Notes: a model not told the origin generated them from the sequence alone. A stretch of DNA of 64,000 nt from Spirochaetia bacterium (GCA_965203905.1 CBDBDQ010000005.1:7721192-7785191); one strand, 5' to 3'. Positions 4,406 through 10,183 are shown, numbered from the stretch's first letter. Made by a program: numbers and translations.

Positions 4406-5799
4406 GGCTGCTGCTCCTGGTCGTGGCGGTCGTCGTGCGGGTCGCTATAGCCGCCGTCGGGATCGACCAGCGGGCGGGTGTCGTTGGCGTAGGCGATGCC
4501 GGCCGCGGTGGCGGGGAGTTCCTCGCCGTCGTCGTCGTCAGTCGGTTGCGGCGCGCTGCCGGAGCCGCGCGGTGAGGTCGCGTTGGCATGCGGGTCCACC
4601 TCGGCCAGTTCGATCATGCGGCCCTGGTGCAGCACCCACAGGCGCCCGTCGAGCACGTGGCGCGCCACCTCGACCCAACTGCGGGCGCTGCGGAGCGGTG
4701 CTTCCCACAACCGACCGCCGGCCTTGATGACGTGATCGTTGGAGACCTTGTGCAGGGCGCGCACCACGAAGCGGCGGTACAGGTCGGCGTCGTCGGTCGG
4801 GAAGCGCAGCTCGCGTCCCTGCTCCCAGCGCTGGCGCGGGGTGATCTCCTTGCCCAGAGTCTCGTGCGGGGTGTCGTTGTAGCGGTTCAGGAAGTGGCGC
4901 AGGCGCAGTGTGAGTGCCTGGCAGGCGGGGTCCACGTCGGCGGCGCCGTCGAGGGCACGCAGCGCCTAGTCGTAAGCGGTGCGGTGGAAGCGCTCGACGG
5001 CGCCGTGGCCCTCGGGATACCTGCTGGCGCCGTGGATCAGCAAGGCGCCCAGGCCGCCCTGGACCACCGCCAGGGTGTCCTTGGAGATGAAGCCCGGTCC
5101 CTTGTCCAGGTAGTACAGGTCCGCGCTACCGTGCCGCATGACCGCTTCGTGGAGGCCGCGCAGGAACAGTTCGCTGGACTCCGCGGTGCCCACCACCACC
5201 TCGAGGCCGTAGCGGGTGGCATCGTCGAGGAAGAACAGCGCGACCCGGCGCAGCCGCGCCGCGCCGGCGCGGAAGTGCTTGCCGTCGGCGAGCACGCACT
5301 GCATACGCTCGGCGTAGCGCCAGCGCCGGGTGTCGCCGTCACGCTTGTGCGGTCGCACGCGCGTCGGCAAACCCATCCGCCGGCAGGCGCGCCACACCGT
5401 GGTGCGATCGATCTTCAGGTCGACCGGGATGATGCCGCGCTCGCGCGCCCGGCGCACCATCTCCGGTACCGAGGCGCGCGCATCACGCTGCTTCTCGGTG
5501 CGCACAAAGGTGACCAGCTTGGAGCTCAGCGCCAGGGAAGTCGCGATGCGGGTGCGCGGCTGCGGCTCCAGGGCAGCCAGGCCGCCGGCGGCCCAGGCAG
5601 CACGCCAGCGTTGCAAGGTGCGTACGCTGACCCGCAGCGGGCGACCGTTCAGGTCCACGCGGTCGCGACCGGCAACGTGCCGTACCGCGGCTCCCGCGGG
5701 GTATCCGCGCAACACCAGGGCCTCCACCTCGGCGACTGCCAGGGAGCGCACCAGCGCGGTCGCCGAGGCCGGTAACGGGGGACGCGTCGAGTCATTCAT
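4402..5799 (-). pseudogene. DDE integrase/transposase (rve core plus Mu-transposase-like C-terminus) interrupted by in-frame TAG at 4966-4968
   Basis: HTH (SVRTLQRW), VLADGK, FLDDATRY, YLDKGPGF, GAVERFHRT motifs; downstream ORF 4402-4935 is in the same frame. Confidence 0.85.
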
Positions 5800-6653
5800 G
5801 CGCCTACCGTAGCGCCGCCCGAGGCTGCTCGAACGGGCGCTTTCGTGGCCGGCGGCGCCCGTCCCCGAGGGCTGCCGGCCATCTCCTTCTCCCGCGCTTC
5901 GGAACGACCCGTCGCGGTAACGATCCAGCTCTTGCCGGCCTGCTCCCAGCGCGCCACCAGCCGCGGGCGCGGTGGCCCCCACAGATCGCTGACCGCACCC
6001 GCCGCTCCCATGCGGTCCCCCAGCGTGGCGCTCACCGCCAGCGCCACCAGCACCGCCACGATCGCGGCTCCGCGGCTCTGCCAACTGCGCTCCCAACTGC
6101 GTGCTCCCGCGAGCACCGTCATGGTCGCCACTCCCAGCCGCGTCGCGATCTGCTCTCGCTCCCGCTCCTCCAGTTCCGGGCTCACCCCGGTCAGCCGTCC
6201 GGCCATCTCCAACCGCCGCTCCTGGGTACGCCGGCATGGCGTACTCGACGACCGCCACCAGTGCAACTCCGATGGCCACCCCTTCTCCTGCTCCGCATCC
6301 TGCGCTGCCCTGAACAGCGTCGCCTGCCACTGCGGTTGGCTGCTGTCAGCGTCGAGCAACAGCTCGCCGTCTGTGCTGTACCGCACCACAGCCACCCGTC
6401 CGTACGGGTAATGTCCCGGCGGATACAGCGTGTAGCGCCGCCCCCCATGCTCCCGGCACCCCACCACCGCTATCGGGTAGCACGGTCCGCTCTTGCGCTC
6501 TCGGTAATGATCGACGAAGATGGCACACGTCTGCTCCCCCGTGGCGTAGACGCATCGTGTCGGCAGCACGGCGTGTAAGGCTCCGTCCTTATCCGTCTCG
6601 TAGCTCGTCGTCGCGTACGGGAGCGCGTGTGCCTCGGTTCCACCCTCGGACAC
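5796..6653 (-). CDS. Cys/His-containing hypothetical protein, first gene of the transposon
   Basis: 285 aa, GAGAGG-like RBS before GTG, ATGA overlap with transposase; C...C...CxxH...YTLYPxGxxPY pattern. Confidence 0.65.
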   Translation of the reverse strand: MSEGGTEAHALPYATTSYETDKDGALHAVLPTRCVYATGEQTCAIFVDHYRERKSGPCYPIAVVGCREHGGRRYTLYPPGHYPYGRVAVVRYSTDGELLLDADSSQPQWQATLFRAAQDAEQEKGWPSELHWWRSSSTPCRRTQERRLEMAGRLTGVSPELEEREREQIATRLGVATMTVLAGARSWERSWQSRGAAIVAVLVALAVSATLGDRMGAAGAVSDLWGPPRPRLVARWEQAGKSWIVTATGRSEAREKEMAGSPRGRAPPATKAPVRAASGGATVGA

Positions 6654-6704
6654 TCGCTGCCTCTCGTGTGCCTCGACTCGCGGTCACCCGCCCGCCGAGG
6701 CTGC

Positions 6705-6742
6705 AAAAAAGTGAAGCCCGCAGCATTCACCTGCTGCGGGCT
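6705..6742 (-). terminator. Intrinsic terminator hairpin in transposon leader (IS110 target)
   Basis: Minus strand AGCCCGCAGCA-GGTGAA-TGCTGCGGGCT followed by TCACTTTTTT. Confidence 0.7.
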
Positions 6743-6758
6743 CCTTAGAAACACATAG

Positions 6759-8144
6759 TCAGGCGGCGTGAGGTACGAGATCGAAGCCGAGAGAACGGGC
6801 TTGGTTGCGCAGGTTGCGCTCACGGCGTTTGCGATCCTGGCAGTGCTGTTGCGAGAGCAGGTCGTCGTCGTAGAGGACATGGTGCGTGACGAGGTGGTAG
6901 ATGATGCGAGCCATCTTGTGGGCGGTGGCGGTGATTGCCTGTGGAGTGCCGAGGCGGGCACGCTTGCGGCGAAAGTGATCTCCGAGCGAGGAGTGGCTCC
7001 GATACAGCGTTTGGGTTGCGATGCGGAGCGCCTGAGCGGCGCGATTGGTGCCGGGTCCGGTCTTCGAACTGATGATCTTGCCGCCGGTGATCTTGTTGTG
7101 GGGGCAGAGATTCAACCAGGAAGCAAAGTGCGCGGCGTCGGGAAAGCGTGACAGATCGGCGCCGATTTCGGTAAACAAGGTAAGGGCAGTGCTCTCGCCG
7201 ATGCCGGGAATAAGGGTCAGGTCGGTACCGAACAGGCGCGTGAGGTGGCGGCTCAGCACGAACCGTTCAGACGTACTCGGGGAGCTGGGAGCCTCACCTT
7301 CGCCGGGAACCGCGCTGCGGTCGGCGCCGGAGGGAACGTCAGGCGGCACATTCGGGTCCGTCTCCAGGGTGCCGATCATGGTCTTGATCTGCTGATCGCA
7401 GGTATCGATGAGCTGCTGGTAGTGCGCATAGGTCAGCCGCGCTTGCTGCAGGGTAAACAGATGCTCGGGACGCCAGTCACCTTGCAGTGCCTTGATCAAC
7501 GTCTCGCGGCTGGCTCTGATCCCGCGATGGGCCAGCGCGGCCAATCGTGCTGGAGCCCGTTCCCCGCCCAGGATGGCGTCGGTGATGGCCATGCCGGTCA
7601 CCCCGGTCAGATCAGAGATCGCATGGTGCAAATGGATGTTCATCTGATCGTAGGATTTCTGCATATGCAGCACGCTCCGCGATGCCGCCTTCACCAGGGT
7701 GTCGCGATGGCGCAGCAGCGTGCGCAGCGCGCACACCTCGTCGGGCGGGCGGAAGGAGCCGCTCAGCAGTCCCACCGAATGTAGATGACGCAGCCATTCG
7801 CAGTCGGCTACGTCGCTCTTGCGACCGGGCACCGAGCGCACATGACGGGCGTTGACCAGTACCACGTCGAAGCCACGAGCTTCCAGGATCTGGAGCACGG
7901 GTATCCAGTAGACGCCGGTAGACTCCATAGCGACCGTGGTTACCCGGCACTCGCTGAGCCAGTCGGCCAACGCGTGCAGGTCGCTGGTGAACGTGGGGAA
8001 ATTACGGATCGGCACCGCGGCGCGATCTTCGCGTACTGCGGCGTACACCGCGGTGGCGCCTATATCCACACCTGCGGCGTCGGGATGGACCTGGTTCGGC
8101 TGCGCCGGGCGTTTGCCGTTGCGTCGCCTCTTACGTCGTGCCAT
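6759..8144 (-). CDS. IS110-family recombinase/transposase
   Basis: AAGVDIG, VAMESTGVYW, RKSDVADCEWL (DEDD RuvC domain), IPGIG, HFASWLNLCP; GGAGG RBS. Confidence 0.95.
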   Translation of the reverse strand: MARRKRRRNGKRPAQPNQVHPDAAGVDIGATAVYAAVREDRAAVPIRNFPTFTSDLHALADWLSECRVTTVAMESTGVYWIPVLQILEARGFDVVLVNARHVRSVPGRKSDVADCEWLRHLHSVGLLSGSFRPPDEVCALRTLLRHRDTLVKAASRSVLHMQKSYDQMNIHLHHAISDLTGVTGMAITDAILGGERAPARLAALAHRGIRASRETLIKALQGDWRPEHLFTLQQARLTYAHYQQLIDTCDQQIKTMIGTLETDPNVPPDVPSGADRSAVPGEGEAPSSPSTSERFVLSRHLTRLFGTDLTLIPGIGESTALTLFTEIGADLSRFPDAAHFASWLNLCPHNKITGGKIISSKTGPGTNRAAQALRIATQTLYRSHSSLGDHFRRKRARLGTPQAITATAHKMARIIYHLVTHHVLYDDDLLSQQHCQDRKRRERNLRNQARSLGFDLVPHAA

Positions 8145-8179
8145 GAAAAGCCTCCACTATGCACCAAGTGCAGCGGCCG

Positions 8180-8345
8180 AGGCGTGAACAAGAGGCATTC
8201 TCCTTACCGGGATGGCCGTCGCCGACAGTGCCGGTGCCGACCTCACCAATGACTACGCCACCTGCCTCGGGACCAAGCTTCACAACGGGTTCGCCACAGC
8301 GGGCGGTCACACCAATGTTCGCGCGGCCTACTTTCGCGCCCCACT
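8180..8345 (-). ncRNA. Putative IS110 bridge RNA (approximate limits)
   Basis: Long non-coding end upstream of transposase with two CATTGGTG motifs, an 8-nt match to the target flank (8277-8284) and a 7-nt match to the donor end (8200-8206). Confidence 0.7.
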
Positions 8346-8719
8346 CGGTGAAATATCGCCCCCAGTATATCTCGCTCCCGTTTCTTCCATGATCACTCCG
8401 GACCGTCAGGCCCGGTAGGATAGCTTCACACTTTACGCCCCCGTCGCTTCTCCGCCTACGCCATCGTCACCGCAACCGGTACTCCCTCACCCCGCCCTTG
8501 GGCGCGCAACGCAATACCTGGCCTTACACCAGGCGGCGACTTGGCCCAACTCGAACGCCCCGTGCATCGGCTTCGCTGACCGGCCAGGTCACGCCCATCC
8601 TGCGCACGCCGCTCAGAAAGTGAGCCATTTGCCGCTTAGAAATTGACCCACCCCCGGCAGGCGAACCCTCCGGGTGATAGTTTGGTGTTGCTGAACATCA
8701 AACTGAACCGGAGAGAAGG

Positions 8720-10183
8720 ATGCTGGGGATGGATCGCGTATACGTTATCAGACACAAGTGGCACCAAGAAGGGCTGTCGATCCGCCAGATAGCCCGTGAC
8801 CTGGAGATAAGCCGGAACACGGTGCGCAAGTACATCGACGATGCCGGCGGGCCGCGGCAGCCGGCGCGGTCGAAGCGGGCGCGGCCGGTGCTGGAGAAGG
8901 TACACGAGCGGATCGACGAGATCCTGGAGGAGTGGAGTACGCGCACCACCGACAAGCAGCGCGTCACCGGGACGCTGGTGCATCGCCAACTCCGCGAGGA
9001 GGGGTACGAGGTGGGCAGCACGACGGTGCGCTCCTACTTGGCGGAGCGGCGCCGGAAGCGGCAGGAAGTGTTTGTGCCGCTGATCTGGCGTCCCGGCGAC
9101 GCGGCGCAGGTGGACTTCTTCGAGGTCACCGTCGAGGTCGCGGGGGAGCGGCAGAAGGCGTGGTTGTTCGTGGTGCACCTGATGTACTCGGGGCGCGACT
9201 TCGCGTGGCTGTACGAGCGCTGCAACCAGATCGCGTTTCTGGACGGCCATGTGCGCGCCTTCGAGCACTTCGGCGGGGTGTCGGTGCGCTGCATCTACGA
9301 CAATCTCAAGGCGGCGGTGAAACGGAGGCTGGGGGTGGAACGGGAACTGAGCGCTCGGTTCCTGGCGTTGTGCTCGCACTACCTGTTCGAGCCGTGCTTC
9401 GCGCGCCCAGGCGAGGGGCATGACAAGGGCGGGGTGGAAGCGCGCGGCAAGAACGTGCGCCTGCAGCACCTGACGCCGATTCCCGGTGGCCCATCGTTGG
9501 ATGCGATCGCGACCGAACTGCTGGAGCACCTGGACGCGGCCTGCGACACGCGCGCTGACCAGGACGGTCGCACCGTGGCACAGCGTTTCAGCGAGGAGCG
9601 CCCCTTGTTGCGCCCGCTGCCGCAGCGATCATTCGAGGCCCGCCAGGTCGAGCCGGTGGCGGTGAGCCGCCAGGCGCTGGTGCGGGTGGACGGCGCGCGC
9701 TACTCGGTGCCCAGTCACTGGAGCGGCAGCCAGGCGACCGCCTACGTGGGGGTGGCGGACATCATCCTGGAGTGGCGCCAGGAACGGATCACGGTCGCCA
9801 AGCAGCCGCGCGGCACGCGCGCGGTCCAGTATCGGCACTATCTGGACGAGTTGGCGAAGAAACCGCAGGCGGTGCGCCAGGTGGCACCCGAGCTGATGGA
9901 GGAGCTTGGTACTCCCTACGTGCGGCTGTGGAAGCTGCTGTCTTCCCGCTACGGCGAGCTGGATGCCGCGCGGGTCGTCGCCAAGCTGGTCGGCGCCATC
10001 GTCGACCATGGCGAGCAACGGATCAGTGAGATCCTCGAGCAGATACTCGCCGCGCCACCGCCCGTGGCGACCGAGGACAACCCGCCGCCGGCCACGGTGC
10101 CGGTGCCGGTCGCCCTGCAGCGCTATCAGGTGGAGTCGACTCCTGCATCGGCCTACAACGTCCTGATGGTGAGGGAGGACTGA
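8720..10183 (+). CDS. istA: IS21 transposase IstA
   Basis: N-terminal HTH SIRQIAR...[27 protein letters not shown] motifs. Confidence 0.93.

Follow-up and report, generated by a model that had tools for sequence, protein, structure and literature searches.

Does the long non-coding end of a transposase-bearing element in a Spirochaetia bacterium encode the RNA that selects where the element inserts, and is this element complete? The question is raised by a locus within a 64,000-nucleotide stretch of DNA (GCA_965203905.1 CBDBDQ010000005.1:7721192-7785191), which we call the window and whose first letter is position 1. Based on the analyses described here, we suggest, with a probability of roughly 85%, that the 279-nt end upstream of the transposase ORF encodes a bridge RNA and that the element is an intact IS110-family insertion sequence. 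Transcription of the bridge RNA, its binding by the recombinase and its need in recombination are predicted from the sequence. The element and its insertion site comprise the following features.

6741-8425, minus strand: IS110-family element including both AG core copies (element proper 1683 bp; from empty sites and contig joints)
6759-8144, minus strand: transposase/recombinase ORF, 461 aa, ATG at 8144 (Pfam and NCBIfam)
8145-8423, minus strand: non-coding end, 279 nt, 5' of the transposase ORF
8424-8425, minus strand: left core copy, AG
6741-6742, minus strand: right core copy, AG
8426-8430, minus strand: left target flank (LT) TGTGA, followed by the core AG at 8424-8425
6743-6747, minus strand: left donor (LD) TAAGG, the last 5 nt of the right end, followed by AG at 6741-6742
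6711-6742, plus strand: target hairpin, comprising the 5' arm, the loop and most of the 3' arm, with the remaining 3' arm at 8426-8429
G000:C5:6524624-6524858, 1195142-1195376 and 6647764-6647998: empty target copies (genome search)

The window interval 6741-8425 is a complete, intact IS110-family insertion sequence. Its 461-aa protein matches PF01548 at 4e-21 and PF02371 at 4.4e-12, and scores 251.5 bits against NF033542, 'IS110 family RNA-guided transposase' (cut-off 140). The N-terminal DEDD RuvC-like domain and the C-terminal Transposase_20 domain by which membership of the IS110 family is recognized are both present. An alignment of 8 relatives shows no variation at D27, E74, D111 and D114, which are assigned to the DEDD catalytic tetrad by motif position and not from a structure, and the ORF itself is intact. 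The motif NKITGG (residues 347-352, window 7089-7106) carries a threonine here and a serine in 5 of the 8 aligned relatives, and the position of the IS621 catalytic serine is placed at this threonine by a weak alignment only. The threonine is also found in a sister element of the same genome and in locus L021, and it seems compatible with movement since each of these two occurs in five identical copies. The right end of the element lies only ~15 nt past the transposase stop codon, and the non-coding end runs from the base before the ATG to 8423, the 279 bp given for it by the first-pass annotation.

The boundaries are independent of the guides because they were fixed by unoccupied sites. At three paralogous loci of the same genome, 6600-6742 abuts 8423-8516 at 87-88% and 95% identity, and the two segments overlap by 3 bases, GCT on the plus strand. 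Contigs from two DNA runs (X2 and X6) join 6739/6740 to 8423, omitting exactly 1683 bases. When the five copies of the sister element are compared, their right flanks after the terminal AG begin with C, C, G, A and G, indicating that the core is the dinucleotide AG and not AGC. The AG(C) core proposed earlier thus holds for the AG, which is present in both copies, but not for the C, which is the element's own first base. The sister element's right flanks show no clear common word. One further contig (record 22 of run X6, a run labelled as the same organism) carries both flanks without differences and joins 6743 to 8429, so that 1685 bases are absent, two above the precise empty site, and one base is changed. 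Possible origins of this junction are a footprint of excision, an allele or an effect of the assembly.

The target is one arm of a 14-bp hairpin (window 6705-6742 and 8426-8429) within a repeated sequence that has at least four occurrences in the genome, three of them unoccupied. The hairpin looks like a terminator, since a T6 run comes after it on the minus strand. The word TGTGAAG, which is the left target flank with the core, occurs 194 times in the genome, and therefore a 7-nt match alone cannot account for the location of the element. The surrounding region is a nest of mobile elements. An IS21-family element (window 8514-10183) lies 90 bp away; its istA-like ORF (8720-10183) contains rve, Mu-transpos_C_2 and HTH domains, and its first ~87 bases are found again elsewhere in the genome at 99% identity. 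Another ORF, 4966-6330 on the minus strand, gives weak helix-turn-helix matches only, under the Pfam cut-offs.

The structured part of the non-coding end is composed of two modules, as follows.

8168-8344, minus strand: structured RNA core, ~177 nt, with an outer helix of GUGGGGCG (8337-8344) and CGCUGCAC (8168-8175), from duplex energies
8271-8328, minus strand: target-binding module, base stem GGCCG (8324-8328) with UGGUC (8271-8275)
8315-8323, minus strand: 5' strand of the target-binding loop, CGCGAACAU, the position of the right-target guide in the family
8286-8314, minus strand: distal stem-loop of the target-binding loop (UGGUG ... CCCG)
8276-8285, minus strand: 3' strand of the target-binding loop, UUGUGAAGCU
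8195-8261, minus strand: donor-binding module, base stem GUG (8259-8261) with UGC (8195-8197)
8249-8258, minus strand: 5' strand of the donor-binding loop, GCGUAGUCAU, pairing partner not found
8208-8248, minus strand: distal stem-loop of the donor-binding loop (UGGUGA ... AUCCCG)
8198-8207, minus strand: 3' strand of the donor-binding loop, GUAAGGAGAA

Two matches to the DNA sites, both recognized in the first-pass annotation, are found again at the positions it gave. The string TGTGAAGC at 8277-8284 is repeated at 8423-8430, where it spans the target flank and the core, and TAAGGAG at 8200-8206 is repeated at 6741-6747, at the other end of the element, all on the minus strand. Within UUGUGAAGCU, positions 8280-8284 correspond to LT, 8278-8279 to the core and 8276-8277 to the element's first two bases, which are handshake-like, and within GUAAGGAGAA, 8202-8206 correspond to LD and 8200-8201 to the core. 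Both matching strings are located in the single-stranded 3' strands of internal loops, outside the stems. To estimate chance, 5000 resamples of the non-coding end were drawn from a first-order Markov model. At least 8 nt abutting the junction matched the left flank in 109 of them, at least 7 nt matched the right end in 112, and both matches occurred jointly in 3. Based on these frequencies, the match in a single sequence is only suggestive, and it is the comparative data that make the case decisive.

The sister element provides a natural single-base test. Its five identical copies, each in a different flank (G000:C5, L003-L007; RNA example L003:1578-1775), are 76% identical in DNA to the studied element. 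The sister guide reads GUUGUCAAGCU and its flanks read TGTCAAG in 5 of 5 copies, while the guide of the studied element reads GUUGUGAAGCU and its flank TGTGAAG. The two elements do not differ in the donor word, UAAGGAG, or in the right end, ...TTTCTAAGGAG.

We then examined the RNA structure in relatives. Pair counts from 84 non-identical sequences, aligned by sequence alone, gave four helices, and RNAalifold on a MAFFT alignment of 22 sequences gave the same four, with compensatory changes in 14 of 23 pairs. The counts supporting each helix are listed below.

Module 1 base stem, GRCCG with UGGYC: pair 49-95 paired in 75/76 (GU 33, AU 33, GC 7), A never opposite C
Module 1 distal stem-loop, UGG(U)G ... 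CCCG: pair 67-77, CG 17, UA 8
Module 2 base stem, 3 bp: pair 107-164, CG 34, UA 25, UG 12
Module 2 distal stem-loop, UGG(U)GA ... AUCCCG: pair 121-150, GC 74, AU 9
Module 2 distal stem-loop: pair 124-148, AU 69, GC 10, CG 2
Module 2 distal stem-loop: pair 126-145, paired in 78/78, six pair types

The outer helix, which was drawn from the MAFFT/RNAalifold alignment by reading, has a mean energy of -23.3 kcal/mol with cognate segments and -16.9 kcal/mol with non-cognate ones, and out of 68 partners the cognate one ranks first in 15 loci and within the top three in 29. Four G·U pairs are nearly invariant (76/81, 79/84, 82/82 and 73/80). Since on the opposite strand these pairs would be A·C, the transposase sense is the one in which the RNA is read. 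A single-sequence fold of the non-coding end is not better than those of shuffled sequences (z = -0.88), and an Rfam search of 6000-9500 in evalue mode gave no family on 8145-8423, with two sub-threshold matches elsewhere in that range. The two modules had been noticed earlier by a shared minus-strand word, CATTGGTG, and this word is indeed present at 8310-8317 and 8244-8251. In RNA form (CAUUGGUG) it holds the same role in each module: its CAU closes the 5' strand of the loop, its UGG(U)G part opens the distal stem-loop, and it pairs with the CCCG of its own module. We also considered a mutual pairing of the two CAUUGGUG words via G·U, which we rejected since it is broken in L021, L026 and L029 when the alignment is read by eye. 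The order of the loops, target first and donor second, is that of known bridge RNAs.

For the comparison of guides with sites, relatives were collected from genome contigs by a protein-guided scan (12 loci, 41-73% identity) and from metagenomes by an alignment-guided contig scan (the best 80 of 588, 43-58% identity). Of 98 sequences searched with an HMM of the non-coding end, 92 have its counterpart 5' of the ORF. Identical copies (ISB4-7 of the sister element, and L022-25 of L021) were left out, as were L047, L064 and L084, which on inspection by eye nearly duplicate L050, L063 and L091. To avoid circularity, junctions were placed with the exact 7-mer alone, and the adjoining bases were scored afterwards. 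The exact target 7-mer (LT5 and core) was found 90-200 nt upstream in 45 of 68 loci, where 0.46 would be expected. Most metagenome boundaries were derived from the guide word itself and not from empty sites. The base following this 7-mer is the element's first base (RD+1) in 44/45 (permuted mean 0.65, maximum 0.84), and the second is RD+2 in 35/45 (permuted mean 0.28, maximum 0.51). The third base matches in 9/45 and the preceding base equals LT-6 in 11/45, both at the null level. Because the matches end at RD+2 and LT-5, the target guide is composed of 5 + 2 + 2 nt.

The donor loop gives a corresponding result. Of 62 loci, 54 have the exact donor 7-mer at the right end, as 25 distinct words and with 1.9 loci expected, and the preceding base equals LD-6 in 6/54, which is the null level. 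A handshake in the donor loop was not detected, as the bases after the donor core match RT+1 in 13/54 and RT+2 in 14/54, at the permuted level. The core is carried by both loops, being AG in 75 elements and AA in 5, discordant in 0 and gapped in 1, so that it is concordant in 80/80 scorable cases. Judged from the aligned sequences, in both the target loop and the donor loop the 3' strand covaries with its DNA site across ~80 relatives. The first-pass annotation had proposed a natural set of recombinase, guide, donor and target, and had named two observations that would speak against it, namely matching segments lying in stems and a lack of covariation with the targets of homologues. The segments lie in single-stranded loops and the guides follow the flanks in the relatives, which bears out the proposed set.

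The AA-core sub-group, with the target guide form UAAAAAAAC, includes L113 (a plasmid record, 1100-1480 and 2780-2900), L077, L089, L096, L108 and L112. L113 sits at an A-run adjoining coding sequence, which we take to resemble an IS3-family orfA frameshift site.

The right-side guides had earlier been described as not convincingly identifiable by eye. This was correct for the right-donor guide, which was not found in column-by-position scans, anchored scans, run-length tests and eight registers, but a weak right-target guide could be detected in the 5' strand of the target loop. The mean complementary run between this strand and the right target is 2.11, compared with 1.09 ± 0.15 in 2000 permutations, and runs of at least 4 are found in 14 of 56 loci, with 2.6 expected. 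Three control pairings gave no signal, and in the best register the conserved C of CANUGG faces the core G (z = 3.8). These values weakly suggest a family-wide right-target guide at this position. In the studied element the complementary run is 0, so that its present right flank is unmatched and only the left guide fits the site. The ideal target predicted for this copy, the left flank word with the complement of the 5' strand, is absent from the genome as an 11-nt site and is found at 3 genome sites as a 10-nt word. For the clade as a whole, a simple annotation rule can be stated: the insertion site can be read from the first module, as the 9 nt that lie between CCCG(N) and UGG.

Here, we need to consider that the locus may derive from a real bridge-RNA element while the present copy is an immobile relic. 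Its right-target guide is unmatched at its own site, and the genome contains one full copy, with one partial relative at 85% identity; however, metagenome run X3 has a copy 97% alike that sits in another flank. Three identical target sites are empty, but run X6, labelled as the same organism, provides contigs of this locus without the element together with others in which the element is free of differences. A threonine occupies the putative nucleophile position, yet it is shared by the sister element and by L021-L025, which appear to have moved recently since each consists of five identical copies at different sites, and the ORF is intact with the DEDD residues retained. We therefore consider an immobile relic unlikely, and continue with an intact bridge-RNA element as the preferred reading.

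We searched for signals of transcription. A sigma-70-type promoter site was not found in 8100-8560, where TATACT at 8364-8369 has no -35 partner and a TANNNT word stands at that position in only 32 of 64 loci. Across the joined ends of 54 loci, the mean junction-spanning promoter score was 2.83, versus 3.95 for shuffles; 1 of the 54 loci reached 9 of 12, the studied element reached 8 of 12, and none was conserved. The RNA run X20 has contigs, 90-99% alike, only on some stretches of the ORF and on the repeat at the flank; the non-coding end is without contigs. The RNA structure lies on the strand of the ORF and is probably co-transcribed with it for that reason, and about 20 nt separate its end from GGAGG, the ribosome-binding site, and the ATG. 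Such an arrangement would also fit a leader that mainly controls translation or stability of the transposase mRNA, with the flank matches as by-products. That explanation leaves unaccounted for the loop strands that track the target flank in 45/68 loci and the donor end in 54/62, as well as the core shared between the loops, and as the main function we consider it very improbable. A leader role and a guide role are not mutually exclusive.

The ends of the element contain further signals at the DNA level.

8398-8415, minus strand: terminal hairpin CCGGGCC UGAC GGUCCGG, ~8 nt inside the left end
8380-8385, minus strand: left copy of the sub-terminal inverted repeat, AGAAAC
6747-6752, minus strand: right copy of the sub-terminal inverted repeat, GUUUCU, ending on the base with which LD begins

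The relatives inspected also have a hairpin at this left-end position. The inverted-repeat hexamer adjoins LD at the right end, and at the left end its reverse complement is found 25-50 nt inwards. The two copies match exactly in 43 of 54 loci, compared with 14.7 when partners were permuted (maximum 24). In the 31 loci with minority hexamers, the left copy is the matching form in 23 and the majority form in 3. The repeat grows to 7-9 bp in some loci, and its placement is asymmetric. The weakest alternative, in which the words would act at the DNA level, as sub-terminal direct repeats of the ends and of the preferred site that the transposase binds in double-stranded form, could draw on this covarying repeat and on the transcript and promoter searches of 8100-8560 and the joined ends, which gave no support for an RNA, but we regard it as scarcely credible, since the words lie in single-stranded parts of a fold whose helices show compensatory changes and strand-specific G·U pairs, the target word varies between close relatives exactly with the flanks where a protein site would not retune base by base, and the protein belongs to a family for which RNA guidance is experimentally shown in the parts of PMC11208160 and PMC11187229 consulted.

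Some loci contain additional arrangements of ends. In L032 (RNA at 49-171 and 1723-1845) and L056, two copies follow each other: what stands as the right flank of the first is the left end of the second, with a single core between them. This is the arrangement of a linear donor junction, either a tandem dimer or a circle opened in assembly. Second RNA matches are also found in L046 and L057. In L026:400-1000, 5' of a full element, several partial left ends are present; two of them, located by nhmmer at 447-553 and 808-914, both end at the target-guide position, and left-end starts recur at 409, 560, 770 and 921. L026 may preserve traces of insertion into another copy's guide region, which would be possible because the DNA encoding the guide copies the left half of the target.

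If the bridge-RNA reading is correct, a mechanism can be proposed by analogy with IS621. The RNA would be bound by recombinase dimers, its first loop would pair with the target and its second loop with the joined ends of the excised element, and exchange around the AG/CT core would lead to insertion. The 2-nt extension of the target guide might pair with the product junction and drive the exchange forward, in the manner of a handshake guide. The right donor side may be read by the protein, which would then use the terminal hairpin and the inverted repeat of 6-9 bp that covaries between the ends.

A detailed comparison with IS621 (PDB 8WT6) reveals both likenesses and differences. As described in the consulted parts of PMC11208160 and PMC11208158, IS621 has its right guides on the 3' side and a CT core, and a 2-nt handshake guide after RTG pairs with the donor following strand exchange. 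The two systems share a DEDD and Tnp-domain recombinase, an RNA gene upstream of the ORF, an RNA of ~177 nt with two pseudo-symmetric internal-loop modules (target loop, then donor loop), the core dinucleotide in both loops, a 2-nt handshake after one guide and bulged nucleotides in the distal stems. First, they differ in the protein, which is only marginally alike (phmmer E = 1.4e-5, with the C-terminal part alone aligned) and has 461 aa compared with 328 aa in the solved IS621 chain. Second, the loops here carry their bottom-strand guides on the 3' strands, where IS621 has them on the 5' strands, as far as those texts describe it. Third, the core in the transposase sense is AG here and CT in IS621. 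Fourth, the long guides here occupy the places of the short RTG and RDG of IS621. Finally, a donor-loop handshake and a right-donor guide were not detected in the scans of the present family.

These differences can be viewed together when the module is read on the strand antisense to the transposase. On that strand the core is CT, and the long guides take the positions of the IS621 RTG+HSG and RDG; the long guide of the first loop becomes a right-target complement, followed by the core and by two bases able to pair with the final two left bases of the donor. Since the antisense core is CT and the order and side of the guides are then IS621-like, the recombination module appears turned round relative to the transposase and RNA genes. 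The simplest reading would be that the recombination module is that of IS621, inverted, with the long and short guides having exchanged lengths.

Other systems of the family share parts of this layout. According to the portions of PMC11187229 consulted, IS110-type elements have the non-coding region upstream and the bottom-strand match first. In the IS1111 type the region is downstream, the complement of the top strand comes before the other match, and the ends carry sub-terminal inverted repeats. The ISEc21 seekRNA, of the IS110 type, is like the present one in its non-coding region upstream of the transposase gene and in short matches to both target strands that overlap at the insertion point, but its bottom-strand match comes first, where ours comes second. 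The IS1111-type seekRNAs of ISEc11, ISPa11 and ISKpn4 share the order in which a top-strand complement precedes a bottom-strand match, a likeness whose top-strand part is statistically weak here (the mean run of the right-target guide). Sub-terminal inverted repeats exist in both, with lengths that overlap only in part: 7-17 bp in the parts of that source consulted, and here a covarying 6-mer, asymmetrically placed, that reaches 7-9 bp in some loci. The position of the non-coding region, downstream in the IS1111 type and upstream here, is different. The IS110 group is reported, in the parts of the literature consulted, to have an inverted repeat of 2-3 bp, compared with 6-9 bp here. An HMM of the studied RNA gave no match in three plasmid loci with IS1111-like gene order. 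ISPpu10 (10.64898/2026.03.19.712850, consulted in part) resembles the studied element in its insertion into the arm of a GC-rich hairpin within a repeated intergenic sequence, and differs in having the IS621 pairing logic and a CT core. In addition, 86 covariance models of bridge RNAs, many of them unlike IS621, are given in the portion of 10.64898/2026.10.21.760802 that we consulted.

Further members of the family offer side observations. In L114, a plasmid locus (1300-1370 and 2380-2660) with IS1111-like gene order and the non-coding region downstream, this region reads AUUGGUGCC ... CACC-CAUGAUGG, and CCATGATGG is also present ~40 nt upstream of the ORF. We regard L114 as a lead, in which a module of a stem-loop followed by a bottom-strand guide would be common to the IS1111 type. 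The genome of the studied element contains at least three further IS110-family elements (G000:C3:84792-85235 and C5:669277-669720; C5:2314499; C5:1998761). One of these, a two-copy element of 1766 bp, has non-coding ends of 320 nt upstream and 156 nt downstream, and its upstream end contains CCCCG-UUGUCAAAC, an 8-nt match to one left junction, which hints at the same module design with another core.

The clade is large, with at least 8000 proteins at E <= 1e-20 and 579 plasmid records holding a relative, and its members are found in several phyla and on enterobacterial plasmids. The layout studied here is not described in the literature consulted, which included a 2026 review and a 2025 ortholog screen, although the figures and supplements of PMC11208160 and 10.64898/2026.10.21.760802 may already contain it. 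What the present analysis adds is the AG core, the handshake-like 2 bases, the weak right-target guide and the layout reversed relative to IS621. Taking these points jointly, we tentatively put forward, as a possibility to which we would give less than even odds, that this large clade is a third RNA-guided configuration of the IS110 family, with inverted polarity and with a right donor side that is read by protein rather than by RNA. Such a configuration would combine the upstream RNA gene of the IS110 type with the guide order and covarying sub-terminal repeats of the IS1111 type, and its inverted polarity would appear as the antisense CT core and as 7-nt guides with a fixed 2-nt handshake in place of the short RTG of IS621. 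Bridge recombinases are under development as genome-writing tools, and their mechanism is known almost entirely from IS621 and close relatives. A distant and very common clade with guides on the other loop strands, a fixed 2-nt handshake and a donor that is apparently half RNA-specified would separate the indispensable parts of the IS621 layout from those that tolerate rearrangement. In its membership features, the clade has the upstream non-coding region of the IS110 type, with a guide side and a core unlike those of IS621 and ISEc21. With this upstream position, the IS1111-type order and the covarying inverted repeat, it appears from the sequences to be neither IS110-type nor IS1111-type, and would form a natural link between the two arrangements.
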